Source of the DNA: Spirochaetaceae bacterium
GTDB taxonomy: Bacteria > Spirochaetota > Spirochaetia > DSM-27196 > SLAA01
Length of the DNA: 64,000 nucleotides
Direction of reading: 5' to 3'
NCBI GenBank assembly: GCA_003552985.1
Contig: PUPD01000265.1
Coordinates: 541-64,540 of the forward strand
Shown here: in pieces, positions 2,417 through 50,286 of the stretch
How positions within the stretch are numbered: position 1 is the first letter of the stretch
How the letters are laid out: every line of letters begins with the position of its first letter
Notes under the pieces: model-generated
Told to the model about the DNA's origin: nothing
What the model saw: only the letters and a program-made list of their open reading frames with translations
The model's database searches: none
Position numbers and translations under genes: made by a program

Positions 2417-5400
2417 ATGCAGCACTACATCCTCGGACTCGATATCGGTTCTGTTTCGGTGGCGGCGGTAGCCGTCGGGAATGACGGGACGATCGTACGA
2501 CACGCATACCGGGCCCACCACGGCCGCATCGGCGCGGCCGTTGAGGAGGTCCTCCGGGAGCTGGCATTGCCGGAACCGGTGGTGGTGGTCGGCACCGGGA
2601 GCGGCACACATCTGATCGAGACCCACGCGCGGTTTCACTGGCAGACTGCGTCGGTTGCCGCTGTCCGGGCACTCTCGGCGCCCGAGCGATTCCCGGCCGC
2701 GATTCTGTTGGTGGGGGGCGAGGAGTTCGGCCTGATCGAGCTCGGCGAGGATCGCGAGTACCGCGGGGCGCGTACCAACTCGAGTTGCGCGGCGGGTACC
2801 GGAAGCTTCCTGGACCAGCAGGCTGAGCGCCTGATGCTTGACGGCGGGCCGATGCTCGCCGAGGCCGCGGCGCGCAATGCGCGTGAGAACGGCGCGGTGC
2901 CCGATATTGCGAGCCGCTGCTCGGTGTTCGCCAAGACCGACCTGATCCATGCGCAACAGGAGGGCTACAGCGTCGAGGAGATCTGCGACGGGCTGTGCTG
3001 CGGGCTTGCGCGAAACCTTGTGGCGACCCTGTTCAGCGATCAGGAGGTGCCGCAACCGTTGCTGTTCGTGGGCGGGGTAGCGTGCAATCAGGCGGTGGTC
3101 CGACACCTCGAGCGCCTGCTCGATGTGCCGCTCGAGCGTCCGGAGCGCCCGGAGCTATTCGCCGCTTACGGCGCCACGCAGGCCTACCGTGAAGCCACCG
3201 CCTCGGGGCGGCTGCCGGCGGCGGAGACCATCAGATCGGCAGACCTGTCGGCTCTGCTGCGTACCGATGCAGCCGAGCGACACGAACCGATGCATCCGGC
3301 GCCGAAGCTGCGGTTGAGTCGCTATCCTGATTTCGAGGGGCACGGACGTCGCGAGTACCCGGCCGCCGGCGAGCGCCGCGTGGAGCTTGACCTCTACGAG
3401 CCGTGGCGCGAGAACCGCCCCAGCCGAACGGGAGGCGACGGTTCGCAGGAGTCGGTGTTCCTGGGGATCGATATCGGCTCAACCAGCACCAAAGCGGTCG
3501 TGCTCGATCGCGACCGGCAGGTACTCCTCGGGCTGTACACCCGCACTGCGGGCAGGCCGATTCGCGCGGTTCAGGCCTTGTTCGAAGCGCTCGATGAGCT
3601 CTGCGCCGAAGAGCAGCGCTCCCTCCGCGTGGATGGCGCGGCAACCACCGGCAGTGGGCGCAAGTTCGTGGGCGCGGTGATCGGCGCCGATACGATCATG
3701 GACGAGATAAGCGCGCACGCGCGCGCGGCCTACGAGCTCGATCCGCAACTGGATACGATCATCGAGATCGGAGGGCAGGACGCGAAGTTCACCACGATGC
3801 GGTCCGGCCGGGTGACCTTCTCGCAGATGAACACCATCTGCGCTGCCGGAACCGGGAGCTTTCTCGAGGAGCAGGCGGCGCGGCTGAACGTGCCGCTCTC
3901 GCAGTTTGCCGAGCGGGCCGAACAGAGCGCGGCGCCGCTGGTGAGCGACCGGTGTACGGTCTTCATGGAGCGCGACATCTCCACCTGCCTCGCCCGCGGG
4001 AATACTCCTGACGAGCTGCTGGCGGCGGCCGCATACGCGGTCACCGAGAACTACCTGCAGAAGGTGGCGGTGCAGGCGGCGATCGGCGAGCGGATCTGCT
4101 TTCAGGGCGCTACCGCCAAGAACCGCGCGCTTGTGGCGGCGTTTGAGCACAAGCTGGGCCGCCCGATCTCGGTGTCGCGCTACGCGCACCTGACCGGTGC
4201 GCTCGGCGCCGCGCTGACGGTGATGGATGAACGCCGAGCGCCGGCGGAGGCGGAGGAACGCCGGCCCCGGGCGGAGGAACGCCGTGGCGAAAGCGCGGCC
4301 CCGGGCGGCCCGGGTACCGGCGATGGCGCAGCGGGCTCTGCCGGCGGCGGATCCCGGTTCCGCGGATTCGGGCTGCATAGGGAGGAGATCCCGATTCGCA
4401 CCGAGACCTGCGAGATCTGCAGCAACCGCTGCCGGATCCGGGTGGCCACCGTAGGCGGTGAGGAGGTCGCCTATGGGTTCATGTGCGGCCGCGACTATCA
4501 CAACGCGCGCTATGTTGAGCGCAACCGCTCGGGCTTCGACCTCGAGAAAGCGCGGCGCAGGGCTTTCTCCGGTGCTACCGGCGTTGAGCGCGAGCACCGG
4601 GCGGGGCAGTCTGCCCGCACCGCTTCCGGCGACGGGGCCTCAATCGAGGGTTTGACGCAGGCGGCCGTCAGGGTGGGGATCCCGCGCGGTCCGGGGATGG
4701 ACGAGGAGCTGCCGATGTGGCGGCGGTTCTTCGCGCTGCTGGGTTTCGAGACGGTGGTGCTTGACGACGGGGAGCAGGTAATCCCTGACGGCCGGCGCGT
4801 GACGGCGGCGGAGTTCTGCGCGCCGATGGTCGCCCTGCACGGCGAAGCGGCGCGCCTGGCGACGCGGGCCGAGTACCTGTTTCTGCCGGTGAAGCTACAA
4901 GACACCGATGCCAAGCGCAAGCGCAAGAACCAGTACTGCTACTACACCCAGTACGCGATGCCGGTTGTGGTCCAAAGCGGAGCCGGCTGGAGTCGTGAAC
5001 GCGTCATCGCGCCGGTGATCTCGGCCGACGGAGGACGCCGCACGCTGATCAACGAGGTGCATCGCGCCTTGCAGCGCACCGTCGTCGGTGGACTCGAACG
5101 TTCAGAGGTGGCGAGTGCCTACCGCGAGGCCTGCCGGTGGTTCACGCGCCGGCGCGCGCGGTTGCGGCGAGTGTACCGCAGCCTCGGTCCTCCCGAGAAT
5201 GACGAGGTGAGGGTTGTGCTGATCGGGCGACCCTACACGGTCCTGAACTCGGCCATGAATAAGCGAATCCCCGCGCTGTTCGGCGAACATGGCGTGAAAA
5301 CTGTTTTCCAGGACATGCTGCCGGTGAGCAGCGGAGCGAGACGCAGTATCGCCGGAGTGCTCGACGCCGTCCACTGGCATTACGCGGTGCAGGTGCTCGC

Positions 5401-7039
5401 CGCGGCAGCCGGAGCGGCGGAGACCGAGGGGCTGTATCCGGTCTTCGTAACGTCGTTCAAGTGTTCGCCGGACTCGTTCGTGATCGAGTACTTCAAGCGG
5501 ATCATGGAGCGGGCCGGCAAGCCGTACATCGTGTTGCAACTCGACGAGCACAGCTCGAGCGTCGGATACGAGACGAGGATCGAGGCCGCCGTCCGGGCGT
5601 TTCGCAATCACCGCAGCGAGGAACAGGCGCGCCCACAGGCGCCCGGGGTCAAGCTTCGTGCAATTCGCAGCGTCCCGGGGGAGCTTGGAGGGTCGGCAGA
5701 CCTTCGGGCACTGCTTCGTAAGCAGCAGGACCGCGTTGAAAAAGGGCGGATCCCGGTGAACCCAAAGCTTTCGCGCCGTCTGCGGAACAACACCGTTCTG
5801 TTTCCGAGCTGGGATCCGATCACCTGTCGGCTGCTGGTGGCTAACCTCCGCCGAGCAGGGTACGACGCGCGGTTGCTTCCTGAGACCGAGCACACGATCC
5901 GAGCGGCGATGCGGCACAACACCGGCCAGTGTCTGCCGGTTAACATCATTGCCGAAGAGTTCATGCGCTATATCCGCGAAAACAATCTCGACCCGTCTCG
6001 TACGGTCCTATGGATGGCCAACGCGGGGGTCGGCTGCAACATCCGCATGTTTCCGTACTTCATAAAGAGCATGCTCGAGCGTCACGGCAACGGGATGGAA
6101 GAAGCGGGAGTCTACACCGGCGATATCTCCCACCTCGAGCTGTCGCCGGCGTTGGCGGTAAACGCGTATTTCGCCTATCTCGCCGGAGGCTTTGTGCGCC
6201 GCAGCGCCTGTCGCCTCAGGCCGTACGAGCTCGAGGTCGGTGCGACCGACCGCGCGGTACAGGATGCGATCGAGATCCTCGAAAACGCGTTCAGCGGAGG
6301 GGAGAGTGTGGAGCGGGCGCTGCACAGAGCGGCGGACCTGTTTGCCGCGGTACCGGTGAGAGCCCACAGCGGACAAAAGCCCAAGGTGGCGATAATCGGC
6401 GACTTGTATCTGCGCGACAACGAGGTTATGAATCAGGACCTCATACAAGCCATCGAAGACGCGGGCGGCGAGGTAGTGACTACCCCGTACAACGAGTATG
6501 TGAAGATCGTGTCGCAGGCCTACTTCGAGAGGATGCGCATAGAAAAACGCTACGGCTCGTACGTCGGATACAGCGCGCTCCTCAGCATTATCGAGGCGAT
6601 CGAGCGGCGCTTGCTCGGCGAGCGGTTCAGCGCCCCGCATCCGTTTACCGATCAGCGTGAGATCGAAGCGACGCTCGAGAAGTTTGCCGTGCGCATTGAA
6701 CACACCGGCGAGACCCATGACAACCTCCTGAAAGTGATACACCTCGTGCGCGAGCATCCGGATCTCGCGCTGGTCGTGCATGCCGGCCCTTCGTTCTGTT
6801 GTCCGAGTCTGATACCCGAGGCGCTCGCCGATCGCATCCGTGAGGTCACCGGCGTGCCGGTGGTGAGCCTGACCTATGACGGCACCGGGACCTACCAGAA
6901 CGACAAGATCGCGCCGTATTTGAGCTTCGCCGCCGCAAGCGGCGACGGCACTGCGACCGGGCGCGGCCCGGCACCTGTTGGGTCGCGGGGCGGCAGTAAG
7001 GCGCCACACCGAGGGGCCGCCGCAGGCCGTCGTGCCTAA
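2417..7039 (+). CDS. giant fusion protein: two BadF/BadG/BcrA/BcrD (HgdC-like activase) ATPase modules plus a Cys-rich DUF2229 / 2-hydroxyacyl-CoA-dehydratase-like region
   Basis: 1540 aa. It has two actin-fold ATPase modules (LGLDIGSVSV at the N-terminus, LGIDIGSTSTKAV at about aa 345), each with a CAAGTGSFL motif. After a low-complexity E/R/A/G linker comes a Cys-rich region (CEICSNRC, FKCSPDSF, GQCLPVN, GVGCNIRMF, PSFCCPS) typical of the 'CoA enzyme activase uncharacterised domain' family. Confidence 0.85.
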   Translation: MQHYILGLDIGSVSVAAVAVGNDGTIVRHAYRAHHGRIGAAVEEVLRELALPEPVVVVGTGSGTHLIETHARFHWQTASVAAVRALSAPERFPAAILLVGGEEFGLIELGEDREYRGARTNSSCAAGTGSFLDQQAERLMLDGGPMLAEAAARNARENGAVPDIASRCSVFAKTDLIHAQQEGYSVEEICDGLCCGLARNLVATLFSDQEVPQPLLFVGGVACNQAVVRHLERLLDVPLERPERPELFAAYGATQAYREATASGRLPAAETIRSADLSALLRTDAAERHEPMHPAPKLRLSRYPDFEGHGRREYPAAGERRVELDLYEPWRENRPSRTGGDGSQESVFLGIDIGSTSTKAVVLDRDRQVLLGLYTRTAGRPIRAVQALFEALDELCAEEQRSLRVDGAATTGSGRKFVGAVIGADTIMDEISAHARAAYELDPQLDTIIEIGGQDAKFTTMRSGRVTFSQMNTICAAGTGSFLEEQAARLNVPLSQFAERAEQSAAPLVSDRCTVFMERDISTCLARGNTPDELLAAAAYAVTENYLQKVAVQAAIGERICFQGATAKNRALVAAFEHKLGRPISVSRYAHLTGALGAALTVMDERRAPAEAEERRPRAEERRGESAAPGGPGTGDGAAGSAGGGSRFRGFGLHREEIPIRTETCEICSNRCRIRVATVGGEEVAYGFMCGRDYHNARYVERNRSGFDLEKARRRAFSGATGVEREHRAGQSARTASGDGASIEGLTQAAVRVGIPRGPGMDEELPMWRRFFALLGFETVVLDDGEQVIPDGRRVTAAEFCAPMVALHGEAARLATRAEYLFLPVKLQDTDAKRKRKNQYCYYTQYAMPVVVQSGAGWSRERVIAPVISADGGRRTLINEVHRALQRTVVGGLERSEVASAYREACRWFTRRRARLRRVYRSLGPPENDEVRVVLIGRPYTVLNSAMNKRIPALFGEHGVKTVFQDMLPVSSGARRSIAGVLDAVHWHYAVQVLAAAAGAAETEGLYPVFVTSFKCSPDSFVIEYFKRIMERAGKPYIVLQLDEHSSSVGYETRIEAAVRAFRNHRSEEQARPQAPGVKLRAIRSVPGELGGSADLRALLRKQQDRVEKGRIPVNPKLSRRLRNNTVLFPSWDPITCRLLVANLRRAGYDARLLPETEHTIRAAMRHNTGQCLPVNIIAEEFMRYIRENNLDPSRTVLWMANAGVGCNIRMFPYFIKSMLERHGNGMEEAGVYTGDISHLELSPALAVNAYFAYLAGGFVRRSACRLRPYELEVGATDRAVQDAIEILENAFSGGESVERALHRAADLFAAVPVRAHSGQKPKVAIIGDLYLRDNEVMNQDLIQAIEDAGGEVVTTPYNEYVKIVSQAYFERMRIEKRYGSYVGYSALLSIIEAIERRLLGERFSAPHPFTDQREIEATLEKFAVRIEHTGETHDNLLKVIHLVREHPDLALVVHAGPSFCCPSLIPEALADRIREVTGVPVVSLTYDGTGTYQNDKIAPYLSFAAASGDGTATGRGPAPVGSRGGSKAPHRGAAAGRRA
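4250..4284 (+). repeat. imperfect 21-nt tandem duplication inside the linker of the giant ORF
   Basis: The core gcggaggaacgccg occurs at 4250-4263 and again at 4271-4284 (AEERRPR / AEERRGE). It is in frame and sits in the low-complexity linker. Confidence 0.6.
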
Positions 7040-7376
7040 CGAGCCTGGGTTTGGGTGCCGCGTCCGGCGAGCTGCGCCCACGAACCAGCCCCACACTGGA
7101 AAGGTAACGGCAAGCAGCACACCTGCCGGAGCGTTGCTTGGCCAAGCTGTTGCGGCCGCACCAAAGACGCCCGTCGTGCAGCGTCTCGCAGTTGGGACAC
7201 AGGACGAATTGCCGCTCGGCCGGCGGCCTTGTGCTGCGCCTGTCGATCAGGATCAGCTTCGGAACGCGCTGGCCCAGCACCAACTCGTTGAATGCCGGCC
7301 CCGGGTTGACGACCCAGTGCAGCGCATCCCATCGTTTCCAGCTTCTTAGCTCGTATCGTTCGGAATCAAACTCCAT
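6846..7376 (-). CDS. hypothetical zinc-ribbon protein (C-terminal extent doubtful)
   Basis: The internal ATG at 7376 is preceded by GGAGG (gtGGAGGcgcaATG). The first ~90 aa look protein-like (MEFDSERYELRSWKRWDALHWVVNPGPAFNELVLGQRVPK...CPNC...CAAC). The R/S/P-rich tail overlaps the 3' end of the convergent giant gene by 194 nt and may not be real. Confidence 0.35.
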   Translation of the reverse strand: MEFDSERYELRSWKRWDALHWVVNPGPAFNELVLGQRVPKLILIDRRSTRPPAERQFVLCPNCETLHDGRLWCGRNSLAKQRSGRCAACRYLSSVGLVRGRSSPDAAPKPRLVRHDGLRRPLGVAPYCRPATQQVPGRARSQCRRRLRRRSSNTARSCRSGRSRCRHRSGSPPARR

Positions 7377-7515
7377 TGCGCCTCCACATGCACTGCCCCC
7401 CTCGGCGCTGTGGGCGTTCTGTCTCGGTTCTGCCTGAACTGGCCGAGTGTCGGCATGCTCAGTGGTAACACAGCCGGAGCTCCGAAGCAGCGGCGAAAGA
7501 ACGCTGTCTACAGGG

Positions 7516-7544
7516 TTGACAAATAAAACCGTTACACTCATATT
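7516..7544 (+). promoter_or_regulatory. candidate sigma70-type promoter of the sulfur-carrier operon
   Basis: TTGACA (7516-7521), 17 nt, then CATATT (7539-7544), in an AT-rich patch 60 nt upstream of the moeB/thiF-like start. Confidence 0.4.
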
Positions 7545-7559
7545 ACGGGCATAAAGACA

Positions 7560-7579
7560 AGTAACTCAACTGAGTTACT
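7560..7579. promoter_or_regulatory. perfect 9-2-9 inverted repeat (candidate operator)
   Basis: AGTAACTCA-AC-TGAGTTACT lies between the putative -10 box and the GGGGAGGA ribosome-binding site of the operon. Confidence 0.4.
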
Positions 7580-7602
7580 GTACTATTGGGGAGGAAACGG
7601 CT

Positions 7603-8448
7603 ATGGCGTTGACTGAAGATCAGATAATCCGGTACTCGCGGCACATTCTGCTCAAAGGGGTCGGTGGGGTTGGACAGGAGAAGCTGCTCGGCTCGCGCGT
7701 GCTGGTTGTAGGAGCCGGCGGACTCGGTTCGCCCGTTTCTCTGTATCTGGCGGCTTCCGGCGTCGGTACCATCGGGGTGGTGGATGCCGACGAAGTCGAC
7801 CTGAGCAACCTGCAGCGGCAGATCGTGCACGACACCGACGACGTGGGGCGGGCCAAGGTTGAATCGGCGGCCGAACGCATCGCCGAGATCAATTCCGATG
7901 TCCGGGTCGAAAAGCATCCGTATCGGCTCAATGCCGAAAACGCGCTGGACCTGGTCAACCAGTATGACTTCATCGTTGAGGGTACGGATAACTTCCCCAC
8001 GAAGTTTCTCGTCAACGACGCCTGCGTGTTCGCCGGCAAGGCTTTCTCGATCGGCGGAATCCTTCGCTTTCAGGGTTCGACAATGACCCACGTCGGAAGC
8101 TCGGCGTGCTATCGATGCGTATTCCGGCAGCCGCCGCCCAAGGACGCCGTGCCGACCTGCTCGCAGGCCGGTGTGTTCGGCGCGGTAGCCGGCATGCTCG
8201 GGACCGTCCAGGCGGCTGAGACGGTGAAGTACCTGTTGGGTCTGGGCGAGCTTCTGACCGACCGCGTGCTTTCGTTCGACGCCCTGACGATGGAGTGGCG
8301 CCGGGTTGAGATCAAGCGCGATCCCAATTGCCCGATCTGCGGCGAGAACCCGAGCATTACCGAGCTGGTCGAGGCTGAGCAGGCGACCTGCGCCTGGCAA
8401 CCGTCCGGCGCGCGCGAGGAAGCCCAAACGGTGCAAACCGGCGTCTAA
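7603..8448 (+). CDS. E1-like adenylyltransferase, ThiF/MoeB/HesA family
   Basis: RYSRHILL..VG..GQEKL, the Rossmann motif VLVVGAGGLGS, DxDxVxxSNLQRQ, and two Cys pairs (CYRC ... CPIC). GGGGAGGA RBS. There is no C-terminal rhodanese domain. Confidence 0.9.
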   Translation: MALTEDQIIRYSRHILLKGVGGVGQEKLLGSRVLVVGAGGLGSPVSLYLAASGVGTIGVVDADEVDLSNLQRQIVHDTDDVGRAKVESAAERIAEINSDVRVEKHPYRLNAENALDLVNQYDFIVEGTDNFPTKFLVNDACVFAGKAFSIGGILRFQGSTMTHVGSSACYRCVFRQPPPKDAVPTCSQAGVFGAVAGMLGTVQAAETVKYLLGLGELLTDRVLSFDALTMEWRRVEIKRDPNCPICGENPSITELVEAEQATCAWQPSGAREEAQTVQTGV

Positions 8449-8469
8449 GCGCCGGGGGGAAGGGTAATC

Positions 8470-9555
8470 ATGGCACGAACGAAGACGGCGCTGTTCGCAC
8501 ATGCGGTGATGGCGCTTTCGGCGCTGACTCTCGTGGCGATATTTGCGTGGGGAATCGCTTCCGGCGCCTTGTCGGCCGACGCAATCGACCGTGGGGCCGG
8601 CGGTCGCGGTGAGTTGGTGCTTCAAGACGACCTGGAAGGCGGCGTTCTCGCGCTGCAGCCTGACGAGGCGGCGATCGGCGTTTTTGACCCGCTCTCCGGC
8701 GAACGCCGCGGACGCATTGAGGCGGACGGCGACCCGGGTGCGATGGTCCCGACCCCGGGCGGCGTATCGGTGTTCGTAACGCGCGACGGCTCGGCGGATC
8801 TGCGCGTGTACAGTACCACCAATTATGAGCATGAGACCACGGTCACGCTCGAGAGCGAACGACTGAGCGAGGATCGCCGCCCTGAGCATCTGCTGTTCTC
8901 CGAGAACGGCGATACGCTGTTTGTCACCTGGAAGGAGTCTCCGGTCGTCTCGGTGTACGCGCACGAGATGCTCGAGCTGGAGCTGCGGACCGAGTTCGAG
9001 ATCGCCGACTCGTTCGGACCGGTGTATCGCAACCGCCGCGCTACGCGGCTATATCGGAAGACTCCTGACGGGTTGGCGGTGGTCTATGCGCGCAACGGTG
9101 ACCACATCGAGACCGTGGAGGCGGGCGCTGAACACTGGCGCTTCAATCCGAGCTACACGCACATTTGGGGCACTGACAGCGACGGCGGGCTGTGGGTCGT
9201 GGACGAACGCTCGACTGAAGCGCGGCGCCTGGATGCGCCGCCGGTGGCCGACGTGCCCCCGGTCCTGCCGAGCGACAGCGACACCGCGCTCGTGCTGACG
9301 GCCGACCGCGAGGCGGTGCTGGCGTTCGATGCGCGCAGCGGCCGGGCGCTCGGCACCATCGAGTTACCCACACCGGCGGCGCACCTCGCGGAGTCCGGCG
9401 CCGGAACCGTCTGGGCCGTGGCCGAGACCGGTGAGGTCACCGCAATCGATCCGGTCGGGCTTCAGGTACACGAGCGGCTCACGCTCGAGGGCGGCGCACC
9501 CACCGCGGTCAGCGCTTCGATCGTGCAGCGCGACGGTAACTTCGCGTGCTTCTGA
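8470..9555 (+). CDS. exported hypothetical protein with beta-propeller-like repeats
   Basis: N-terminal signal/anchor (ALFAHAVMALSALTLVAIFAWGIASGALSADA). Then reiterated strand-turn motifs (DGSADLRVY, NGDTLFVTW, DGLAVVYA, DGGLWVVD, ALVLTADREAVLAFD, GTVWAVAETGEVTAID) reminiscent of YVTN/lactonase-type propellers. No family could be named with certainty. Confidence 0.6.
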   Translation: MARTKTALFAHAVMALSALTLVAIFAWGIASGALSADAIDRGAGGRGELVLQDDLEGGVLALQPDEAAIGVFDPLSGERRGRIEADGDPGAMVPTPGGVSVFVTRDGSADLRVYSTTNYEHETTVTLESERLSEDRRPEHLLFSENGDTLFVTWKESPVVSVYAHEMLELELRTEFEIADSFGPVYRNRRATRLYRKTPDGLAVVYARNGDHIETVEAGAEHWRFNPSYTHIWGTDSDGGLWVVDERSTEARRLDAPPVADVPPVLPSDSDTALVLTADREAVLAFDARSGRALGTIELPTPAAHLAESGAGTVWAVAETGEVTAIDPVGLQVHERLTLEGGAPTAVSASIVQRDGNFACF

Positions 9556-9594
9556 GCCGCCGCCGGAAGGCGTGCAGGACAAGGGAGGATTTGG

Positions 9595-10662
9595 GTGATG
9601 TTTGTTATCGGAGGCATAGCACTCGGACTGCTGCTCGGCTTTTCGCTGCAGCGCGGGGGCTACTGCATGAACACTGCGTTTCGAAGCTTTTTCTACGAGA
9701 AGGACCGCAGCCTGGTACGGGCCTGGGTGCTGGTGCTGTTGATCAACGTGATCGGCGTGCAGCTGCTGACCGAGCTCGGCGTGCTTTATCCGTTGGTTGC
9801 GCCGTTCTTCTGGCCGGCGATGATCGCCGGCGGGTTCATCTTCGGCGTGGGGATGGTTCTGGCCGGCGGATGCGCGAGCGGGACCTACTATCGCTGCGGC
9901 CGAGGGATGCTCGGCTCGATGGGCGCGCTGCTCGGCTTCGTGCTCGGCACGGCCCTGGTTGACGGCGGAGCGCTCACCTGGTTGCAGCAGAGTATGCGAC
10001 AGCCGACGCTCGATGTCCGTGGACAGGAGGCGACGCTGTTCAACGTCCTCGGGATCGAAACGGCGGGCCTGCGCTGGGTCCTGCTCGGGGTTCTGGCGGC
10101 GGCGGCGATGGTCTGGCTGCTGCGCGCGCCCAAGCAGCGCTTTCTGATCGGGTGGGGCTGGCAGCGGACCGGCCTGGTGGTCGGGGTGCTGGCGCTTGCG
10201 GCCTGGGTGCTTTCGGCGATGGCCGGGCGCGATTTCGGACTGTCGTTCACGCAGCCCACCGTTGCGCTCACCCGCTACGTGCTCGCCGGTGACGACTCGG
10301 GAATCAGCGTAGCGTCATACATGGTGATCGGCGTCCCTGCCGGTGCACTGCTGGCTGCTAAGGCTACCGGGGAGGCGGTGCTGCGAATACCCGACCCGCG
10401 GACGCTGCTGCGACAGTCCGGGGGAGGAGTAACCATGGGAGTCGGAGCCTCGCTCGCCGGCGGCTGCAATATCGGTCACAGCATAACCGGCATCTCGACT
10501 CTGAGCATCGGCGCAATCGTGGCGACGATCTTCATCATGCTGGGTTCGTGGACGATGACCTGGCTGATCGTGCGCAGCGAATCACGCAACGCGCAGCGCG
10601 CGCAGAAGCAGAAGCAGAAGCAACAACAGCAGCAATCACGTGCTAAGGAGGCATTCGTATGA
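9595..10662 (+). CDS. yeeE: YeeE/YedE family sulfur-compound (thiosulfate) permease
   Basis: Polytopic membrane protein with the three signature cysteines in glycine-rich re-entrant contexts (QRGGYCMNTAF, LAGGCASGTYYRCG, LAGGCNIGHS). K/Q low-complexity tail. AGGGAGGA RBS. The start is GTG 9595 or ATG 9598. Confidence 0.88.
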   Translation: MMFVIGGIALGLLLGFSLQRGGYCMNTAFRSFFYEKDRSLVRAWVLVLLINVIGVQLLTELGVLYPLVAPFFWPAMIAGGFIFGVGMVLAGGCASGTYYRCGRGMLGSMGALLGFVLGTALVDGGALTWLQQSMRQPTLDVRGQEATLFNVLGIETAGLRWVLLGVLAAAAMVWLLRAPKQRFLIGWGWQRTGLVVGVLALAAWVLSAMAGRDFGLSFTQPTVALTRYVLAGDDSGISVASYMVIGVPAGALLAAKATGEAVLRIPDPRTLLRQSGGGVTMGVGASLAGGCNIGHSITGISTLSIGAIVATIFIMLGSWTMTWLIVRSESRNAQRAQKQKQKQQQQQSRAKEAFV

Positions 10663-11588
10663 GTAGCGATATTCGGCGCAAGCCGGTGACCATAGCGGCG
10701 GCGGTAATCGTCGTCATTGGGGCGGCCGTAGCGGTCGCTTACGGAGCCGGAGTGGTGGGCGGGCCGCAGATCACGCGCACCGTACCGGAAGAGATTCTGG
10801 TCGACCCCGAGTGGGTGGCGGAACGCGCGGACCAGGTGACGATCCTCGACTACAATGGGAATTTCGATCTCTTCGCTGAAGGCCATATTCCGGGTGCCGC
10901 ATTCGTGGCGCGTGAAGTGGTATGGGACACGGTCGACGGAATCGACGGCATGCTGCCCGACCCTGAGCTTGTAGCGGCGGATCTGGAAGAAGCAGGCGTC
11001 AGCAACGATCGACCGGTGGTGGTCTACGATCAAGGCAACGGTCTCTGGGCGAGCCGCCTGTTCTGGGCGCTCGAGTATCTTGGTCATGAGCAGGTTCATG
11101 TGCTCGACGGCGGCCTCAAGGCGTGGCAGGAGGCCGGCCACGAGGTTTCCATCGAGATCGCGACCCCTGAGCGCGGCAAGTTCGAGCTCAATCTGCGCCC
11201 TGAGCTGATCGCCGACAAGGAATACGTGCTCGACCAACTGGATAACGAGCAGCTTACGGTGTTGGATACGCGTTCGCCCGATGAGTTTGCCGGTACCGAT
11301 GTACGCGCCGAGCGCGGGGGACATATCCCCAACTCGCTAAACATCGACTGGGTCAACAACGTCGGTGAGGATGAACGGTTCAAGCCGATCGCGGAGCTCG
11401 CCGAGCTATATCAGGAAGTGATCGACGGAGAGCACGGCGGTGAGGCGGTCACGCTCTGCCAGACCGGAGTGCGTGGCGCGCATACCTATCTCGTGCTGCG
11501 GGTGCTCGGCGAGGAGCAGGTCAGGGTCTACGACGGCTCATGGGCCGAATGGGGAAACGATCCCGAGGCTCCGGTGGAGTCTCTATAA
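10659..11588 (+). CDS. membrane-anchored tandem-rhodanese thiosulfate/3-mercaptopyruvate sulfurtransferase-like protein
   Basis: ATGA overlap with yeeE, and an AAGGAGG RBS. N-terminal basic stretch plus one TM helix (RRKPVTIAAAVIVVIGAAVAVAY). Two rhodanese domains, the second carrying the active-site loop CQTGVRGAH. Confidence 0.88.
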   Translation: MSSDIRRKPVTIAAAVIVVIGAAVAVAYGAGVVGGPQITRTVPEEILVDPEWVAERADQVTILDYNGNFDLFAEGHIPGAAFVAREVVWDTVDGIDGMLPDPELVAADLEEAGVSNDRPVVVYDQGNGLWASRLFWALEYLGHEQVHVLDGGLKAWQEAGHEVSIEIATPERGKFELNLRPELIADKEYVLDQLDNEQLTVLDTRSPDEFAGTDVRAERGGHIPNSLNIDWVNNVGEDERFKPIAELAELYQEVIDGEHGGEAVTLCQTGVRGAHTYLVLRVLGEEQVRVYDGSWAEWGNDPEAPVESL

Positions 11589-11607
11589 CTCTAAAGGAGT
11601 AAACGCT

Positions 11608-11856
11608 ATGGCGGGAAAAAACACGGTAGATAAGAGTCTGGACCTCAAGAATGAGGTATGCCCGTACACCTTCGTAAAGAGCAAGCTGGCGCTGGAAGAG
11701 CTCGATCCGGGCCAGGTGCTCGAGGTACACCTGGGAAACAGTGAGTCGGCCTCAAACGTGCCGCGATCAATAGACCTCGAAGGGCACGAGGTGCTGAGTG
11801 TCGATCGGCCCGAGACGAGCCACTGGGTCGTGACGGTACGTCGCTCGCAGCAGTGA
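11608..11856 (+). CDS. TusA/SirA/YeeD-family sulfur-carrier protein
   Basis: 82 aa, starting at the internal ATG 8 nt after AAAGGAG. LDLKNEVCPYTFVKSKLALEEL...VLEVHLGN... matches the TusA fold pattern. The Cys motif is CPYT rather than the canonical CPxP. Confidence 0.8.
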   Translation: MAGKNTVDKSLDLKNEVCPYTFVKSKLALEELDPGQVLEVHLGNSESASNVPRSIDLEGHEVLSVDRPETSHWVVTVRRSQQ

Positions 11857-11884
11857 GATAACCTAAGAACAAAGGAGGCACGGC

Positions 11885-12097
11885 ATGAAGCTTACTATTA
11901 ACGGGAAACCGGAAGACATCGCCGGTGAGAACTTGTCGGTCGTTGAGCTTCTGAAGGTCAAGGACGTCGAGATGCCGGACATGGTGTCGGTGCAGCTCAA
12001 CGGGGAGATCCTCGAGCGCTCAGCGTTCGAGACGACGACCGTAAAGGATGATGACGAGGTGGAGTTTCTCTACTTCATGGGTGGTGGCTCGTTATGA
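11885..12097 (+). CDS. ThiS/MoaD-like ubiquitin-fold sulfur-carrier protein with C-terminal extension (..MGGG-SL)
   Basis: 70 aa. MKLTINGK...VQLNGEIL.R..F..T.V.D.DEVEFLYFMGGGSL. AAAGGAGG RBS. The Gly-Gly is followed by two extra residues. Confidence 0.85.
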   Translation: MKLTINGKPEDIAGENLSVVELLKVKDVEMPDMVSVQLNGEILERSAFETTTVKDDDEVEFLYFMGGGSL

Positions 12098-12501
12098 TTG
12101 CGCTCTCGCAGGATATATTGGCTGAGATTGCTGCCCAGGCCGAGAGCGAGGCACCCAACGAGGCATGCGGATACCTCGCCGGACGGGATGGGGTCGCCCT
12201 CGAGCGCTACCCCATGACGAACGCGGACGCCAGCCCGGAGCATTTCTCGTTTGAGCCGCGCGAGCAGTTTGTCGCGCTCAAGCGTGCGCGGGAGGCGGGG
12301 TTCGAGCTGATTGCGGTTTATCACAGCCATCCGGCTACCCCGGCGCGCATGTCGGACGAAGACGTTCGGCTGGCGAACGATCCCGACACGATCTATCTCA
12401 TCTACTCGACGCCCGAGGACCGAATTCGCGGCTTCACCGTAACACGCGACAAGCGGGTGCTTGAGTGCCAGGTGCAGGTGACCGCCGAGACGCCGCGCTG
12501 A
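12094..12501 (+). CDS. JAMM/MPN+ metallopeptidase (prokaryotic JAB, Mec+/QbsD/HcyD-like)
   Basis: ATGA overlap with the ThiS-like gene. EACGYL (catalytic Glu) and YHSHPATPARMSDED (HxH...S..D zinc motif). Confidence 0.88.
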   Translation: MIALSQDILAEIAAQAESEAPNEACGYLAGRDGVALERYPMTNADASPEHFSFEPREQFVALKRAREAGFELIAVYHSHPATPARMSDEDVRLANDPDTIYLIYSTPEDRIRGFTVTRDKRVLECQVQVTAETPR

Positions 12502-12517
12502 GCGGCGGCGTCTCGGC
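12484..12517 (+). terminator. 13-bp perfect GC-rich hairpin at the operon end (no U-tract)
   Basis: GCCGAGACGCCGC (12484-12496) pairs with GCGGCGTCTCGGC (12505-12517). The 8-nt loop contains the JAMM stop codon. No T-run follows, so it may not be a classical intrinsic terminator. Confidence 0.4.
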
Positions 12518-12607
12518 CACAGCCTGCATTTCGCCGCCGGCTTTCCCTCGCCGCTCCCTTCGGCACCGCTTGCCAACTCAACGGCCTTAGAGTAGTTTCA
12601 AAACGAG

Positions 12608-13629: not shown

Positions 13630-14358
13630 ATGCCGAGCGTTCAGGTTCGTGTTTTTCAGGAGCTCAACGATCATCTGCCACCGGCGCGCCGCGGGCGGTT
13701 GATCGAGGTGGATGCTGCGCCGGGAGAGACGGTGAAATCAATCGTCGAAAACCTCGGTGTCCCGCATACCGAGATCGACCTCATCACCGTGGAGGGCGAA
13801 TCGGTGCCGCTGTCGCATCAGCCGCGCGACGGGGTGCGTATCAACGTCTATCCGATGTTCGAACGCTTCGATATCTCGGGCCTGACGCGGGTGCGGCGCG
13901 AACCCTTGCGTCAACCGCGATTCGAGCTCGACGTGCACCTCGGCAAGCTTGCGCGCCTGTTGCGGATGTGCGGCCTGGACGCCGAGTATAGACCGCCGTT
14001 CGAGGACGGCGAGCTGATCGATCGCGCCCTCGCCGAGCACCGCATCCTCCTGAGCCGCGATCGCGAGCTCTTCAAGCACCGCAGAGTCACGCACGGGTAC
14101 TGGCTCCGATCGCAGGATCCCCGGCAGCAGCTCGAGGAGGTGATTGACCGCCTTGACCTGCGCCGGCACCTGCACGTCTTTACGCGCTGCATGAGTTGCA
14201 ACGGTGAGCTCGAACCGGTGGAGAAGTCAGAGATAACGAACCGCCTGCTGCCGCGCACCGCGGAGCATTACGACGATTTCAAACGGTGTACCCGCTGTGA
14301 TAAACTCTACTGGAAGGGTAGCCATTACCAGCGGATGCGCGCGCGCCTGCCGATTTGA
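13630..14358 (+). CDS. Mut7-C family RNase (PIN-like) with N-terminal ubiquitin-like beta-grasp domain and C-terminal Zn-ribbon
   Basis: Trimmed to MPSVQVRVFQELNDHLP... The N-terminal ~80 aa match the 'Mut7-C ubiquitin' pattern. Next comes FELDVHLGKLARLLRMCGLD (Mut7-C PIN-like core), then CMSCNGEL ... CTRCDKLYWKGSH. The 193-codon upstream extension in the ORF track overlaps rarD and is rejected. Confidence 0.8.
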   Translation: MPSVQVRVFQELNDHLPPARRGRLIEVDAAPGETVKSIVENLGVPHTEIDLITVEGESVPLSHQPRDGVRINVYPMFERFDISGLTRVRREPLRQPRFELDVHLGKLARLLRMCGLDAEYRPPFEDGELIDRALAEHRILLSRDRELFKHRRVTHGYWLRSQDPRQQLEEVIDRLDLRRHLHVFTRCMSCNGELEPVEKSEITNRLLPRTAEHYDDFKRCTRCDKLYWKGSHYQRMRARLPI

Positions 14359-46191: not shown

Positions 46192-47346
46192 ATGCAGAGC
46201 GTATACTTGGACAATAACGCGACCACACCGGTAGTGCCCGAAGCGGTTGCAGCAATACATGACTGTCTTGAACGCACATTCGGGAACCCGTCGAGCCTCC
46301 ACCGATCCGGCGTTGACGCCGATGGGATCCTTCAGAACGCACGACGAAGTCTGGCCGAGCAGTTAGGAGTGGCCGCTCGTGAGCTTTATTTCTGCTCCGG
46401 AGCTACCGAAGCGAACAATACCGTGATCAGCGGGGTTGCGCACGCCTATCGTGCGCGCGGGCGACATATCGTGACAACTGCGGTTGAGCATCCTTCGGTG
46501 ATCGAGCCGATGCGCCGGCTCGAGGAGGAAGGCTTCAGTGTGACCTATCTAAGGCCCGATCCGGTCAACGGCTTGAGCATTGAGCAGGTGCGTGAGGCCC
46601 TGCGCCCGGAGACCATCCTGGTCAGCATCATGCAGGTCAACAACGAGACCGGAGCTGTGTTTCCGGTGGCCGATATCGCGCGCATGGTGAAGTCGCGCGC
46701 CAAGACGGCCGTGGTGCACGCCGACGGTGTCCAGGGCTTCGGGAAACTCGTCTCGCCGGCGGGCGCGCTCGATGCCTACAGCACCAGCGCGCACAAGATT
46801 CACGGTCCCAAAGGGGCCGGCGCGCTGTATCTACGCAGCGGCGTACGTTGCCGGCCGCTGCTGGTGGGTGGAGGTCACGAGGCGAGCCTGCGTGCCGGCA
46901 CCGAGAACGTCCCCGGTATTGCGGGCTTCGCGGCCGCCGCCGCGGCTGCCGGAGGCGGGCGCGAAGAGAATTACCGTCTGATTGCTGCGATGCGCTCACA
47001 GCTGGTGCGAGCGGTCGAGAGCACCGGCCGAGCGGTGATGCTGTCCCCGCCGGACGCCATCGCAACCACCCTGGCAGTGGCGTTTCCGCCGATACCGGGG
47101 GAGGTCATGGTGAATGCGCTGTCCGAGGCCGGGGTCGCGGTCTCCACCGGCTCGGCATGCGCGGCTTCGCGCAACAAGCGCAGCCACGTGCTGGAAGCGC
47201 TCGGGTTTGAGCAGCGCGTCATAGACTCAAGCGTTCGGTTCAGCCTTTCACGGCTCAACACTGCGGCCGAGGTGGAGGCGGTGGGCGAGATTCTCGCAGC
47301 CACGCTGAAGCGCTTGCGGCCGGTGGCCGAGCGGGTATTGCGATGA
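46192..47346 (+). CDS. class V aminotransferase cysteine desulfurase (NifS/NifZ/IscS-like)
   Basis: The PLP-lysine context STSAHKIHGPKGAGALY, GGHE...RAGTENV, and the active-site Cys loop STGSACAA. Confidence 0.9.
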   Translation: MQSVYLDNNATTPVVPEAVAAIHDCLERTFGNPSSLHRSGVDADGILQNARRSLAEQLGVAARELYFCSGATEANNTVISGVAHAYRARGRHIVTTAVEHPSVIEPMRRLEEEGFSVTYLRPDPVNGLSIEQVREALRPETILVSIMQVNNETGAVFPVADIARMVKSRAKTAVVHADGVQGFGKLVSPAGALDAYSTSAHKIHGPKGAGALYLRSGVRCRPLLVGGGHEASLRAGTENVPGIAGFAAAAAAAGGGREENYRLIAAMRSQLVRAVESTGRAVMLSPPDAIATTLAVAFPPIPGEVMVNALSEAGVAVSTGSACAASRNKRSHVLEALGFEQRVIDSSVRFSLSRLNTAAEVEAVGEILAATLKRLRPVAERVLR

Positions 47347-48683
47347 GCGAAACGCCTGAAAGCCAGGCGGCACAGAACTCGCCGACCGAACCGCTGCGCA
47401 GGCTGGCGCTGATTGCGTTCGACGAGATTGCTCTCAAACGCGGTCAACGCGGGCGCTTCATGCAACAGCTGCGCACCAACATCGTGGCGCAACTCGGCTG
47501 TGAAGCCAAACGCGTGGTTGCGCGTCACGGCCGCATCGAGATTGAGCTCGGTGACCTGGGCGACCTGGGGGCGAACCGGCGCGGGGCCCCGGGCGAGGTT
47601 GTAGAGCGTTCCGAAGGCGATAAGGGGTCGCCGGCGGTGCACGCAGCTCACGGGCCTCGTGCAGACGAGCAGTGGCGCGGCTGGAGTGCTTCATTGCGGA
47701 GGGTGTTCGGAGTCAAGTGGTACGCGCTTGCCGAGGCGGTTCCGCTGAATCTGCAGGCGCTGGAATCGGCTGTGTTGCGTCGGGCACGCGACGCGGCGGC
47801 CGCAGGCGCGAGGACCTTCAAGCTGGAGCATTCGCGCAGAAATAAAGCGTTTCCGGTCGATTCGATGGCGCTTAACCGGCGTGTGGGCGCGCTTGTGCTC
47901 GAACGTCTGCCGGAGCTCAGCGTCGATGTGCATTCACCTGATCTGTTGATCGATGTCGAGATCCGTCACAACGAGATCACGGTCTTTGCCGACAAGCATC
48001 CCGGTGCGGAGGGCTTGCCGGTGGGAAGCACCGGGGCGGCATTGACGCTATTGTCCGGGGGAATCGACAGCCCGGTAGCGGCCTGGTATGCGATGAAGCG
48101 CGGTCTGTCGATGGAGTACGTGCATTTTCACAGCCCTCCGTACACCGGACTAAAGGCGGAGCAGAAGGCGCGTGATCTGGTGGACGCCCTGAACCGCTGG
48201 GTGCCGCAGCCGGGACGGTTGTTTCTGGTTCCGTTTGCCCGCATTCAGGAGGAAGTGGCCGACCTCGTTCCGGCAGGGTACTGGACGATCATCCAACGGC
48301 GGTTCATGCAGCGCATCGCCGGGCGGATCGCCGAACACTATCGGCTCGAAGCGCTCACGGTGGGTGACAGCATCGGACAGGTGGCAAGCCAGACGCTGTC
48401 GAACATGGCGGCGATTGATGCGGCTACCCGTCACCTGGTGCTGCGGCCACTACTCGGCTTCGACAAAGACTGGATTATGCGCACCGCCCGTGAAATCGGT
48501 ACCTACGAGATTTCGATCCGCCCGTTTGAGGACTGCTGCGTGTTGTTCGCCCCCCGGAAGCCCGCGATTCGCTGCGATGTTGCGACGGTCGAGCAGTACG
48601 AACAGCAGCTCGAGTTGGACGGGTTGGTGGAGGCGGCCCTTGAAAGCATGCAGGTTGCGACCGTTGCGGGCCTACAGTGGTAG
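47343..48683 (+). CDS. thiI: tRNA 4-thiouridine synthase / thiazole sulfur-transfer protein ThiI, lacking a C-terminal rhodanese domain
   Basis: ATGA overlap with the desulfurase gene. THUMP-like N-terminal half with a ~45-aa insert. PP-loop LTLLSGGIDSPVAAW. The protein ends right after the PP-loop domain. Confidence 0.88.
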   Translation: MSETPESQAAQNSPTEPLRRLALIAFDEIALKRGQRGRFMQQLRTNIVAQLGCEAKRVVARHGRIEIELGDLGDLGANRRGAPGEVVERSEGDKGSPAVHAAHGPRADEQWRGWSASLRRVFGVKWYALAEAVPLNLQALESAVLRRARDAAAAGARTFKLEHSRRNKAFPVDSMALNRRVGALVLERLPELSVDVHSPDLLIDVEIRHNEITVFADKHPGAEGLPVGSTGAALTLLSGGIDSPVAAWYAMKRGLSMEYVHFHSPPYTGLKAEQKARDLVDALNRWVPQPGRLFLVPFARIQEEVADLVPAGYWTIIQRRFMQRIAGRIAEHYRLEALTVGDSIGQVASQTLSNMAAIDAATRHLVLRPLLGFDKDWIMRTAREIGTYEISIRPFEDCCVLFAPRKPAIRCDVATVEQYEQQLELDGLVEAALESMQVATVAGLQW

Positions 48684-48747
48684 AGCGCGATAGTACGCGG
48701 CGGCGGGCGCGCCGCGCAGCCGATCGTTCGCTCTTGACGGCTTGCTC

Positions 48748-48776
48748 TTGACGGCAGGCCAATACTGTGTTATATA
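48748..48776 (+). promoter_or_regulatory. candidate strong sigma70-type promoter in the thiI-thiL spacer
   Basis: TTGACG (48748-48753), 17 nt, then TATATA (48771-48776). The -35 region is part of a tandem GCTCTTGACGG duplication (48731-48740 and 48745-48754). The patch is a conspicuous AT-rich block in a GC-rich genome. Confidence 0.4.
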
Positions 48777-48824
48777 TTACAGTAGAAGTAAGGTTTTGCC
48801 GGCTCGCCGGCACACTGCCTCCAA

Positions 48825-48867
48825 GGCACCTGTCGCTGCCCCCTCACCTGCGGCGGGTGCCGTTTTT
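48825..48867 (+). terminator. intrinsic-terminator-like hairpin plus T-run
   Basis: GGCACCTGTCGC (48825-48836) pairs with GCGGCGGGTGCC (48850-48861): 12 bp, including two G-U pairs. The loop is 13 nt, followed by GTTTTTGTG. Confidence 0.5.
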
Positions 48868-48911
48868 GTGACCGGCGTTTGCCGGCTCGCGTGCGCCGTG
48901 CCATCGTGACC

Positions 48912-48941
48912 TTGACCTGCCGGTCGGGGTGGACGTACACT
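48912..48941 (+). promoter_or_regulatory. candidate promoter of the TPP-riboswitch-controlled operon
   Basis: TTGACC (48912-48917), 18 nt, then TACACT (48936-48941). The riboswitch P1 helix begins about 20 nt downstream. Confidence 0.45.
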
Positions 48942-48960
48942 GCCGCACAGACATACCGTT

Positions 48961-49043
48961 CCGTTAGGGGAGCTGTTGCGGCCTGCGACGGCTGAGACCA
49001 AACCCTTGAACCTGATCCGGATAATGCCGGCGAAGGGAAACGG
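48961..49043 (+). promoter_or_regulatory. TPP (thiamine pyrophosphate, THI-box) riboswitch aptamer
   Basis: ccgttaGGGGAGC...GCTGAGAccaaACCCttgAACCTGATCCGGATAATGCCGGCGAAGGGAaacgg carries all conserved THI-box blocks (CUGAGA, ACCUGAUC.GGAUAAUGCC.GCG.AGGGA). P1 pairs ccgtt with aacgg. Confidence 0.92.
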
Positions 49044-49257
49044 ACGCGCTTGGTTGCGGTGCCCGCAGGCCGGGTGCTGCGCGGTGACGGCGGGCGCCGA
49101 AGCCCGCGCGTCACTCTGCCGTTCCGTCGTCTTTCCGTCTCGATCCCCTGTTTATTTGTCGGCTGCGGTACACCTGCTGCATCCGGTACGTCTGCTTGCC
49201 TACGCTGCCGAAGAAGGCCGGCCGGCGGCGCCGGGCGCCGGGCTGTGAAGGAGCTTT

Positions 49258-50271
49258 GTGATGACCTTGCGCGATATCGGCGAGTTCGGCTTGATCGAGC
49301 GCATTGCCGCACGGTTCTCGACGGTCGGCACCGAGGACGGCAGTCTGGGAATCGGCGATGACTGCGCCGTTCTGAGCCGCAATCGAGACGAGCTCGATCT
49401 CGTGACAACCGATCTCCTGATCGAAGGGAGCCACTTCCTGCGGGATGCGATCTCCCCGCGTCTGCTCGGTCGCAAGTCAGTGGCGGTCAACCTTAGCGAC
49501 ATCTGCGCGATGGGCGGCGAATGCCGTTCGGCGTTCCTCGCACTTGCGTTACCGGGCGAGCTATCGGTCGCCTGGATCGACGCATTCTTTGACGGCGTTC
49601 AGGAGCGCTTGCGGGAAGCCGGAGTGAAGCTTCTCGGCGGCGACACCACACGGTCCAACGGGCCGATCGTGATACAGTTCACGATCCTCGGCTCGGTCTC
49701 GCCCGCCCACCTGAAGCTGCGCCGAACGGCGCGCGAGCAGGACCTGATCTGCGTCACCGACTGCCTTGGGGACTCAGGGGGAGGTCTACGGGCATTGCTG
49801 GAAGGCGTAGCGCGGAACAGCGCCGTGGAGTACCTGATCGAACGGCACCTCGATCCATGTCCGCAGCTCGCCGAGGGCGCGTGGCTGGCCGCCTCGAGTG
49901 ACGTGCATGCCATGATGGACATCTCAGACGGGCTTGATTCGGATATTCGCCGCATTATGGAGCAGAGCCGGGTGGGGGCCCGGATTGAGGTCGAGCACCT
50001 GCCCCTTTCGTCCCAACTGCGCGAGGTCGCCGCAGAGCAGGCATGGTCGGCCTGGGAGCTCGCGGTGAGCGGAGGTGAGGACTACGTCCTGCTGTGTACC
50101 GTGGCCCCGGAGCGCCACGCCGCGCTCGCAGAGGCTTTTCAGCGCCGGTTCGGCCGGGAGCTTAGGGCCGTCGGGCGGATAACCGACCGGCCCGGACAAC
50201 TGGTGTACCTGCGTGACGGTGTGCCGATGGATCCGAGTAAGCTCGGGTTCGACCATTTCAGGACCGAGTGA
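49258..50271 (+). CDS. thiL: thiamine-monophosphate kinase
   Basis: LRDIGEFGLIERI, GIGDDCAVL, TDLLIEGSHF, NLSDICAMGG and GGDTT. GAAGGAG RBS. The start is GTG 49258 or ATG 49261. Confidence 0.9.
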   Translation: MMTLRDIGEFGLIERIAARFSTVGTEDGSLGIGDDCAVLSRNRDELDLVTTDLLIEGSHFLRDAISPRLLGRKSVAVNLSDICAMGGECRSAFLALALPGELSVAWIDAFFDGVQERLREAGVKLLGGDTTRSNGPIVIQFTILGSVSPAHLKLRRTAREQDLICVTDCLGDSGGGLRALLEGVARNSAVEYLIERHLDPCPQLAEGAWLAASSDVHAMMDISDGLDSDIRRIMEQSRVGARIEVEHLPLSSQLREVAAEQAWSAWELAVSGGEDYVLLCTVAPERHAALAEAFQRRFGRELRAVGRITDRPGQLVYLRDGVPMDPSKLGFDHFRTE

Positions 50272-50286
50272 AGTATCGAGACTCAA

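Follow-up and report, generated by a model that had tools for sequence, protein, structure and literature searches.

A stretch of 64,000 nucleotides (nt) from a Spirochaetaceae contig (PUPD01000265.1, positions 541 to 64,540; hereafter the window), part of a metagenome-assembled genome (MAG) from a soda lake, carries seven same-strand open reading frames (ORFs) at 7603-12501 that constitute a composite operon (Table 1). An import core, made up of an exported β-propeller, a YeeE-family transporter, a tandem rhodanese and a TusA-family protein, is set within a carrier triad: an E1-like adenylyltransferase, a ThiS-fold sulfur carrier and a JAMM metallopeptidase. Together, these fused modules probably import reduced inorganic sulfur and supply it, in the form of a protein thiocarboxylate, to the synthesis of sulfur amino acids. 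The genes are tightly packed: two junctions are ATGA overlaps (10659-10662 and 12094-12097, the latter between ThiS and JAMM), and the other genes lie 19-39 nt apart; with the YeeE start placed at ATG 9598, as in the NCBI gene call, the gap before it widens to 42 nt. A first-pass annotation, made from the sequence alone, had described just such an operon; its coordinates are confirmed, and a Pfam profile search recovers all six families that it had named (ThiF, Sulf_transp, Rhodanese, TusA, ThiS and Prok-JAB). The propeller, gene 2, has no match in Pfam or NCBIfam.

Two modules joined in three gene orders

Do the seven genes belong together? The same genes, in the same order, recur in other MAGs in which the propeller is 52-61% identical to that of the window; the arrangement is therefore not due to chance, and the operon is the single unit that it was first taken to be. 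It is less self-contained than the first-pass annotation held. In about 35 loci encoding relatives of gene 2, the six-frame ORFs of which were scanned with the seven window proteins, the block propeller-YeeE-rhodanese-TusA is present in each locus that extends far enough to contain it; about 17 loci from spirochaete MAGs, with propellers 23-45% identical to the window's, have this core by itself, mostly with a second, divergently encoded rhodanese. Because the core is found without E1, ThiS and JAMM in most relatives, the operon combines two modules, of which the core is separable.

The modules are joined in more than one way. The order E1-core-ThiS-JAMM of the window is seen again, complete, in L010/L014, L015 and the metagenome locus L049, and in part in L012, L019, L043 and L044. 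In L016 and L021 the order is E1-core-ThiS-MetY-JAMM, with a gene for a MetY-type sulfhydrylase (discussed below) added, and in L035, L041, L047 and L054 it is ThiS-MetY-E1-JAMM-core. The distant L035 reads ThiS, a 436-residue ORF, E1, JAMM, propeller, YeeE, rhodanese and TusA; L041 has two rhodanese genes in its core (propeller-YeeE-rhodanese-rhodanese-TusA); L042 has DsrE-TusA inside the ThiS-MetY-E1-JAMM cluster, which is followed by YeeE-rhodanese-TusA; and L040 is a plain ThiS-MetY-E1-JAMM cluster headed by an Rrf2 regulator gene. In another soda-lake MAG (SKQU01; L038), a ThiS-MetY-E1 cluster with no YeeE nearby is closed by a fusion of JAMM and TusA (P0078, 8001-8693, 230 residues), the TusA domain of which is of the window's subtype (99 bits). 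Since import and carrier genes are joined in at least three gene orders, across lineages, and in one JAMM-TusA fusion, the two systems appear to be functionally linked. In the simplest history, an ancestral ThiS-MetY-E1-JAMM-core arrangement, kept in L035, L041, L047 and L054, would have been rearranged in soda-lake spirochaetes, and MetY would later have been lost from the operon in the sub-lineage of the window.

The carrier triad resembles the HcyS/HcyF/HcyD system of homocysteine synthesis and, judged by subfamily, belongs with it. The E1 protein has a ThiF domain only in Pfam, with no fused rhodanese; aligned with E. coli ThiF (1ZFN), it keeps both zinc-binding CxxC motifs and the equivalent of ThiF C184, and it scores under the cut-off of every NCBIfam equivalog. 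The carrier ends in EFLYFMGGG followed by a two-residue tail, SL, which masks the Gly-Gly end. Its subfamily is sharply defined: in about 36 distinct members, FLYFMGGG is invariant and 0-8 variable residues come after it, as expected if the Gly-Gly end has to be freed by a JAMM peptidase. The peptidase of the operon has an intact HxHx7Sx2D site (HSHPATPARMSDED) and an N-terminal NEACGY motif, in which Glu and Cys are invariant; its homologues outside the propeller clade, 53-65% identical, sit in ThiS-MetY-E1-JAMM clusters. The nearest PDB entry to the window carrier is 2K5P/3CWI (79 bits), with the tail FMGGG-KL; labelled as a thiamine-biosynthesis ThiS by structural genomics, it is a member of the tailed, JAMM-associated (HcyS-like) subfamily rather than a classical ThiS. 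Because the window carrier passes the NCBIfam thiS model and the 2K5P "ThiS" has the same kind of tail, tailed HcyS-like carriers are likely mis-annotated as thiamine ThiS.

In the import core, YeeE aligns over its full length with S. thermophila YeeE (6LEO; E 3.7e-45; 264 bits to Pfam Sulf_transp), and all three signature cysteines reported by the first-pass annotation are there, in the motifs GGxC, AGGCASG and AGGCNIGH. Unlike S. thermophila YeeE, the window protein ends in a tail of low complexity, QKQKQKQQQQQSRAKEAFV (10590-10662). TusA has its Cys18 in EVCPYTFVKSK; its best PDB match is TM0983 (50 bits), and S. thermophila YeeD scores 30 bits.

On which side of the membrane does the rhodanese work? 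The window protein starts with MSSDIRRKP, followed by a hydrophobic stretch, and all operon-encoded rhodaneses likewise combine a positively charged N terminus with a hydrophobic stretch (a signal peptide, transmembrane anchor or lipobox); some have a lipobox (LIGC, LAGC or MIGC) or a twin-arginine-like RRFRAFF. By contrast, the second, divergently encoded rhodanese of the four-gene loci has no export signal and opens with its catalytic domain. Because the signal is present in every operonic homologue and absent from the divergent one, the tandem rhodanese is predicted to act outside the cytoplasm, upstream of YeeE in the pathway. The domain assignment and membrane anchor given earlier are correct, but the cytoplasmic relay from rhodanese to ThiS that the first-pass scheme implied is not upheld. 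Nor is thiosulfate secured as the substrate: it is suggested by TsuA homology only, and the exported rhodanese and soda-lake habitat make sulfane sulfur or polysulfide equally possible. Of the proposed flow from external thiosulfate to a protein thiocarboxylate, it is the genetic linkage between sulfur import and a ThiS-like carrier that holds.

Gene 2 is confidently modelled as a seven-bladed propeller. The AlphaFold2 model (predicted local distance difference test, pLDDT, 88; predicted template-modelling score, pTM, 0.79) has seven blades behind an N-terminal helix (residues 2-30) and a disordered linker; its Foldseek neighbours are generic YVTN/YncE propellers (1L0Q, 1e-14; YncE 3VH0, 2.5e-12) at an identity of only 12-18%, and membership in a YncE/YVTN sequence family is found in neither Pfam nor NCBIfam. 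Twenty close relatives share invariant PTPGGVSV, FSxxG, H165, an Arg-rich NRRATR and a C-terminal G-[NS]-F-A-C-F. Among 1.84 billion cluster representatives, a profile search picks out 95 proteins at E <= 1e-10; the 49 full-length proteins with a single domain that were examined all end in G-x-[FY]-A-C-F (three with one extra residue), and every one of them has a signal peptide, lipobox or anchor. The family is present in 24 species-representative genomes, all spirochaete MAGs from soda or hypersaline lakes, and its gene lies directly upstream of YeeE in every locus examined. An exported propeller family with this invariant end appears to be undescribed.

Table 1. Genes of the operon and candidate control elements, in positions of the window
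Feature	Position	Strand	Basis or remark
Promoter-like TTGACA-17 nt-CATATT	7516..7544	+	10/12 consensus matches
Perfect 9-2-9 palindrome AGTAACTCAACTGAGTTACT, 20 base pairs (bp), candidate operator	7560..7579	.	between -10 element and ribosome-binding site
E1-like adenylyltransferase, ThiF/MoeB/HcyF type, 281 amino acids, without rhodanese domain	7603..8448	+	Pfam ThiF 9e-80
Seven-bladed β-propeller (modelled), exported/membrane-anchored, uncharacterised family, end G-N-F-A-C-F	8470..9555	+	AlphaFold2 model, N-terminal helix
YeeE/TsuA-family sulfur transporter	9595..10662	+	Pfam Sulf_transp 2e-78, 6LEO match
Exported tandem-domain rhodanese, active-site loop CQTGVRG, N-in signal anchor	10659..11588	+	Pfam Rhodanese x2, 3e-34
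TusA-family sulfur transferase, cytoplasmic, single conserved Cys18	11608..11856	+	Pfam TusA 2e-17
ThiS-fold sulfur-carrier precursor, HcyS-like, tail SL	11885..12097	+	Pfam ThiS 6e-11
JAMM/MPN+ metallopeptidase, HcyD/Mec+-like	12094..12501	+	Pfam Prok-JAB 8e-23
13-bp perfect GC-rich hairpin spanning JAMM stop codon	12484..12517	+	outer stem to 12471-12530

Acceptor, route and alternatives

Where would the sulfur go? The first-pass annotation noted that the operon encodes no acceptor enzyme, which is true of the window, and left the end product as unknown, a question that relatives largely settle. In L016 and L021, an extra gene for a 426-residue protein lies between ThiS and JAMM; both products best match TIGR01326, the O-acetylhomoserine/O-acetylserine sulfhydrylase subfamily (338 and 395 bits), and their top PDB matches are T. 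maritima MetY, followed by W. succinogenes MetY (3RI6). MetY is inside the operon in L016, L021 and L035, and four out of four looked-up contexts of JAMM homologues read ThiS-MetY-E1-JAMM. A metagenome scan adds 80 further loci: among the 31 with at least 3.5 kilobases (kb) upstream, MetY is present in 23 and ThiS in 27, and TusA is present in 17 of 22 adequately flanked loci, often with DsrE. Because MetY is found in the operon in relatives and is typical of the clusters of this ThiS/JAMM subfamily, the acceptor is most likely a MetY-type O-acetylhomoserine sulfhydrylase. It had been granted at the outset that a well-known acceptor pathway adjoining in relatives would reduce the operon to a standard route; in spirit this is what the relatives reveal, the route being the known, though uncommon, homocysteine thiocarboxylate pathway.

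Other acceptors are encoded near some relatives. A cysteine-synthase-like gene of the PALP family lies directly upstream of ThiS in L053, L080, L082, L087, L089 and L119, and follows JAMM closely in L057; a divergent Rrf2 gene is often present as well. One carrier may thus serve both cysteine and homocysteine synthesis. The only PALP protein of the window (51206-52315) was considered as a CysM-type acceptor and rejected, being threonine-synthase-like.

From the gene families, motifs, export signals and patterns of co-occurrence and rearrangement we infer the following route, including each chemical step, the substrate and the acceptor in this genome. In the periplasm, the exported tandem rhodanese would take sulfane sulfur from thiosulfate or polysulfide, both of which are abundant in soda lakes; the propeller might bind anions through its Arg-rich face or carry sulfur on its C-terminal Cys; and YeeE would move the sulfur inward across the membrane. 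In the cytoplasm, Cys18 of TusA would receive it, as YeeD does for S. thermophila YeeE; JAMM would trim SL to expose the Gly-Gly end of the carrier; E1 would adenylate the exposed end; and the TusA persulfide would react with the carrier adenylate to give the thiocarboxylate. A MetY encoded elsewhere would then use the thiocarboxylate to form homocysteine, a CysK/M-type enzyme possibly drawing on it too. Last, JAMM would cut the amino acid off the carrier, on the model of the Wolinella HcyS/HcyF/HcyD/MetY pathway. Parts of this scheme have precedents: YeeD accepts thiosulfate-derived sulfur on a Cys, its downstream acceptors being described as unknown (PMC11073785), and for SoxT a module has been proposed that combines a YeeE-like transporter with a periplasmic Cys protein and sulfur transferases (PMC11582611). 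A bolder version is possible, though doubtful: the exported rhodanese could pair with the propeller, the penultimate Cys of which is invariant, to capture persulfides in the periplasm and hand sulfur to the YeeE cysteines, TusA and the adenylated ubiquitin-like carrier in an unbroken Cys-to-Cys relay to the thiocarboxylate, which would make the propellers a family of obligatory extracytoplasmic YeeE partners.

Several findings weigh against coupling of import to homocysteine synthesis in this genome. Equivalog models do not back the import assignments: YeeE scores 221 and 184 bits with the NCBIfam TsuA models (cut-offs 400 and 645), and TusA scores 30.8 bits with the TsuB/YeeD model (cut-off 147.5). 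The carrier, for its part, passes the thiS model TIGR01683 (56.5 bits; cut-off 37.45). The proposed acceptor comes from relatives and would be encoded outside the 64-kb window, in which tblastn with two MetY sequences gives no match (E > 1); a CysM homologue is likewise found neither in the operon nor in the window. Only about 7 of the 80 metagenome loci of the ThiS-MetY-E1-JAMM type include a YeeE module, and the role of the propeller is one that we purely infer.

Could the modules merely be neighbours, with the core providing a general sulfur supply and E1, ThiS and JAMM making thiamine or the molybdenum cofactor? The score of the carrier with the thiS model speaks for this, as do ThiF and MoeB being the best solved relatives of E1, the core standing alone in most relatives and the operon having no acceptor gene; yet it is improbable. 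In about 100 loci screened with the seven window proteins plus MetY, DsrE, PALP and Rrf2, or through precomputed Pfam labels, though not with ThiG, ThiH or ThiO queries, no ThiG, ThiH, ThiO, ThiE or MoaE is seen by the triad, and MetY is found instead; classical ThiS and MoaD have neither a C-terminal tail nor a dedicated JAMM; the thiamine pyrophosphate (TPP) riboswitch of the window lies 36 kb off, before ThiL-like and ThiD genes and not before the operon; and the modules are linked repeatedly, in three gene orders and in the JAMM-TusA fusion. If the carrier does serve amino-acid synthesis, is its product cysteine, instead of or besides homocysteine, by a CysO/CysM/Mec+-type route? The six loci in which a cysteine-synthase-like gene precedes ThiS, with MetY present too, and the label of CysO-cysteine hydrolase that JGI gives to some JAMM homologues, make this conceivable but still rather unlikely, since MetY is far commoner than PALP beside this ThiS/JAMM subfamily and is the only acceptor inside propeller-clade operons, and the window has no CysM-like gene.

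It is highly improbable that the ThiS-like protein is a ubiquitin-like modifier of the small archaeal modifier protein (SAMP) or TtuB kind, conjugated by E1 and removed by JAMM, with sulfur supply regulating the modification. The SAMP-activating UbaA is the second-best NCBIfam model of E1 and desampylase is the only one matched by JAMM, but both scores are far under the cut-offs (317.7 vs 450 bits and 68.8 vs 130 bits); moreover, the steady partner genes are metabolic (MetY, CysK/M, TusA and DsrE), and E2-like or target genes are not among them. There is little chance, too, that the operon serves another chalcogen or purpose, such as selenium uptake by YedE/YedF-like proteins or, in place of assimilation, the detoxification or dissimilation of polysulfide. 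Weak NCBIfam matches to YedE, YedF and the selenite-operon rhodanese ExtH point that way, along with the exported rhodanese and a polysulfide-rich habitat; against them stand the better score of YeeE with TsuA than with YedE models (221 vs 101 bits), the genes found linked to it, for MetY, CysK/M and a biosynthetic carrier, which indicate assimilation, and the absence of respiratory or oxidative sulfur enzymes among the adjacent genes. Import of reduced sulfur for thiocarboxylate-dependent amino-acid synthesis remains the preferred reading.

Control elements and flanking genes

The promoter-like element noted earlier is present, and its position is kept: L010, L015, L016, L019 and L021 have a TTGACA/TTGACG -35 element at the corresponding site before E1, although one match of such quality is what chance would yield in a promoter scan of the operon region. 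The palindrome is shared more widely. AGTAACT-N6-AGTTACT directly precedes the first gene both of seven-gene loci (L012/L021, L015, L016 and L019; at 9103-9118 in L021, 319-338 in L015 and 111-130 in L016) and of four-gene loci (L005, L006, L008, L024, L027 and L028; at 9930-9949 in L005, 9955-9974 in L006 and 3149-3168 in L024), sitting, in the latter, in the spacer that separates this gene from the divergent rhodanese gene. Both arms keep their sequence and do not covary, which suggests an operator bound by a protein; that the four-gene and seven-gene variants share it supports one regulated unit and suggests that the E1 gene was inserted behind the control region of the import core. In L069 and L070, where an Rrf2 gene stands at the head of the ThiS cluster, a related element, AGCAAC...GTTACT, precedes that gene. 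Many related clusters begin with an Rrf2 regulator gene, but the 64-kb window has none.

At the other end, the 13-bp hairpin said to close the operon is real: its extended stem has a folding free energy (dG) of -45.6 kcal/mol (z -4.7), and none of 200 shuffles folds as well. Its loop contains the JAMM stop codon, no U-tract follows and a terminator scan of the region gives chance-level counts; a terminator role is only a conjecture.

Rfam finds no riboswitch upstream of the operon in the window or in five relatives; its sole match is the unrelated TPP riboswitch at 48956-49055 (+), which scores 67.5 bits, above the gathering score, and lies upstream of a ThiL-like gene of the AIR-synthase family, ThiD and the threonine-synthase-like PALP gene. 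Just before it, a NifS/IscS-type cysteine desulfurase and ThiI mark a second sulfur-trafficking neighbourhood (genes 46192-52315). Closer by, upstream of the operon, a gene at 2417-7039 (+) encodes a 1540-residue fusion of two BadF/BcrAD-type ATPase domains and DUF2229 (CoA-enzyme-activase-like). A 231-residue ORF on the opposite strand (6846-7541) overlaps the 3' end of the fusion gene by about 190 nt, and its start abuts the promoter region of the operon; its precomputed label, DUF8250, is unconfirmed by a Pfam scan at E <= 1e-5. A Mut7-C ribonuclease with an N-terminal, ubiquitin-like Ub-Mut7C domain (Pfam 4e-50 and 2e-21) is encoded at 13675-14358 (+), two genes past the operon. Since this gene is not kept beside the operon in relatives such as L010, the proximity of its β-grasp domain is probably coincidental.

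Comparison with known systems

What would such an operon add? In the study that raised the question of the YeeD acceptor, none is named (PMC11073785); the operons described here nominate an E1-activated, ThiS-like carrier that feeds MetY. A literature search, with most subscription journals outside its reach, found no paper that joins YeeE to a thiocarboxylate, or a MetY/ThiS cluster to TusA, DsrE or YeeE. The thiocarboxylate route may also be wider than thought, since it appears to be common in environmental bacteria, usually wired to TusA/DsrE relays; this matters for the prediction of methionine prototrophy from genomes, and in 2017 the thiocarboxylate-dependent homocysteine pathway was noted to be missing from MetaCyc and KEGG (PMC5764234). 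The propeller and the exported rhodanese beside YeeE suggest periplasmic accessory proteins that are not in current transport models.

The operon differs from classical thiamine systems in that its carrier is tailed, has a dedicated JAMM and lacks an upstream riboswitch; no ThiG, ThiH or ThiO is seen in related loci, to which no dedicated queries for these proteins were put. It shares the carrier-E1-JAMM trio, and JAMM processing of the carrier end or adduct, with CysO/MoeZ/Mec+/CysM of M. tuberculosis and with QbsC/D/E of thioquinolobactin synthesis; unlike these systems, it has an E1 without a fused rhodanese and no CysM or siderophore genes, and the acceptor of its relatives is MetY. In SoxT1A/SoxT1B of Hyphomicrobium denitrificans, a periplasmic protein with a C-terminal Cys is likewise proposed to pass sulfur to a YeeE-like transporter, with a rhodanese and TusA downstream; there, however, the partner is a DsbA-like thioredoxin, the rhodanese is cytoplasmic and the sulfur feeds dissimilatory sHdr oxidation or signalling instead of a biosynthetic thiocarboxylate (PMC11582611). 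With YeeE/YeeD (TsuA/TsuB) of E. coli and S. thermophila (6LEO and 8J4C; PMC11073785) the operon has in common a Sulf_transp protein with three pathway cysteines and a one-Cys TusA-family protein encoded in the same operon. In the window, by contrast, the proteins score under the equivalog cut-offs and a rhodanese gene lies between YeeE and TusA; the import core always includes a propeller and a rhodanese, and the cytoplasmic acceptor is encoded alongside.

The closest counterpart of the triad is in Wolinella succinogenes, for which HcyS/HcyF/HcyD/MetY-mediated, thiocarboxylate-dependent homocysteine synthesis was reportedly described by Krishnamoorthy and Begley in 2011; the sulfur on HcyS is said to come from sulfite reductase. 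Both systems have a tailed ThiS-fold carrier, an adjacent JAMM and an E1 without a rhodanese domain, and in relatives of the window MetY is part of the cluster. Wolinella MetY takes its sulfur from the carrier-protein thiocarboxylate (PMC8191291; PMC6225789; PMC5764234). The window differs in having no MetY in cis, in its gene order, which is rearranged, and in its supply, which consists of a YeeE importer, TusA and two exported proteins. The type of pathway is thus known; the genetic coupling of YeeE import to a thiocarboxylate carrier and the exported rhodanese appear to be undescribed.

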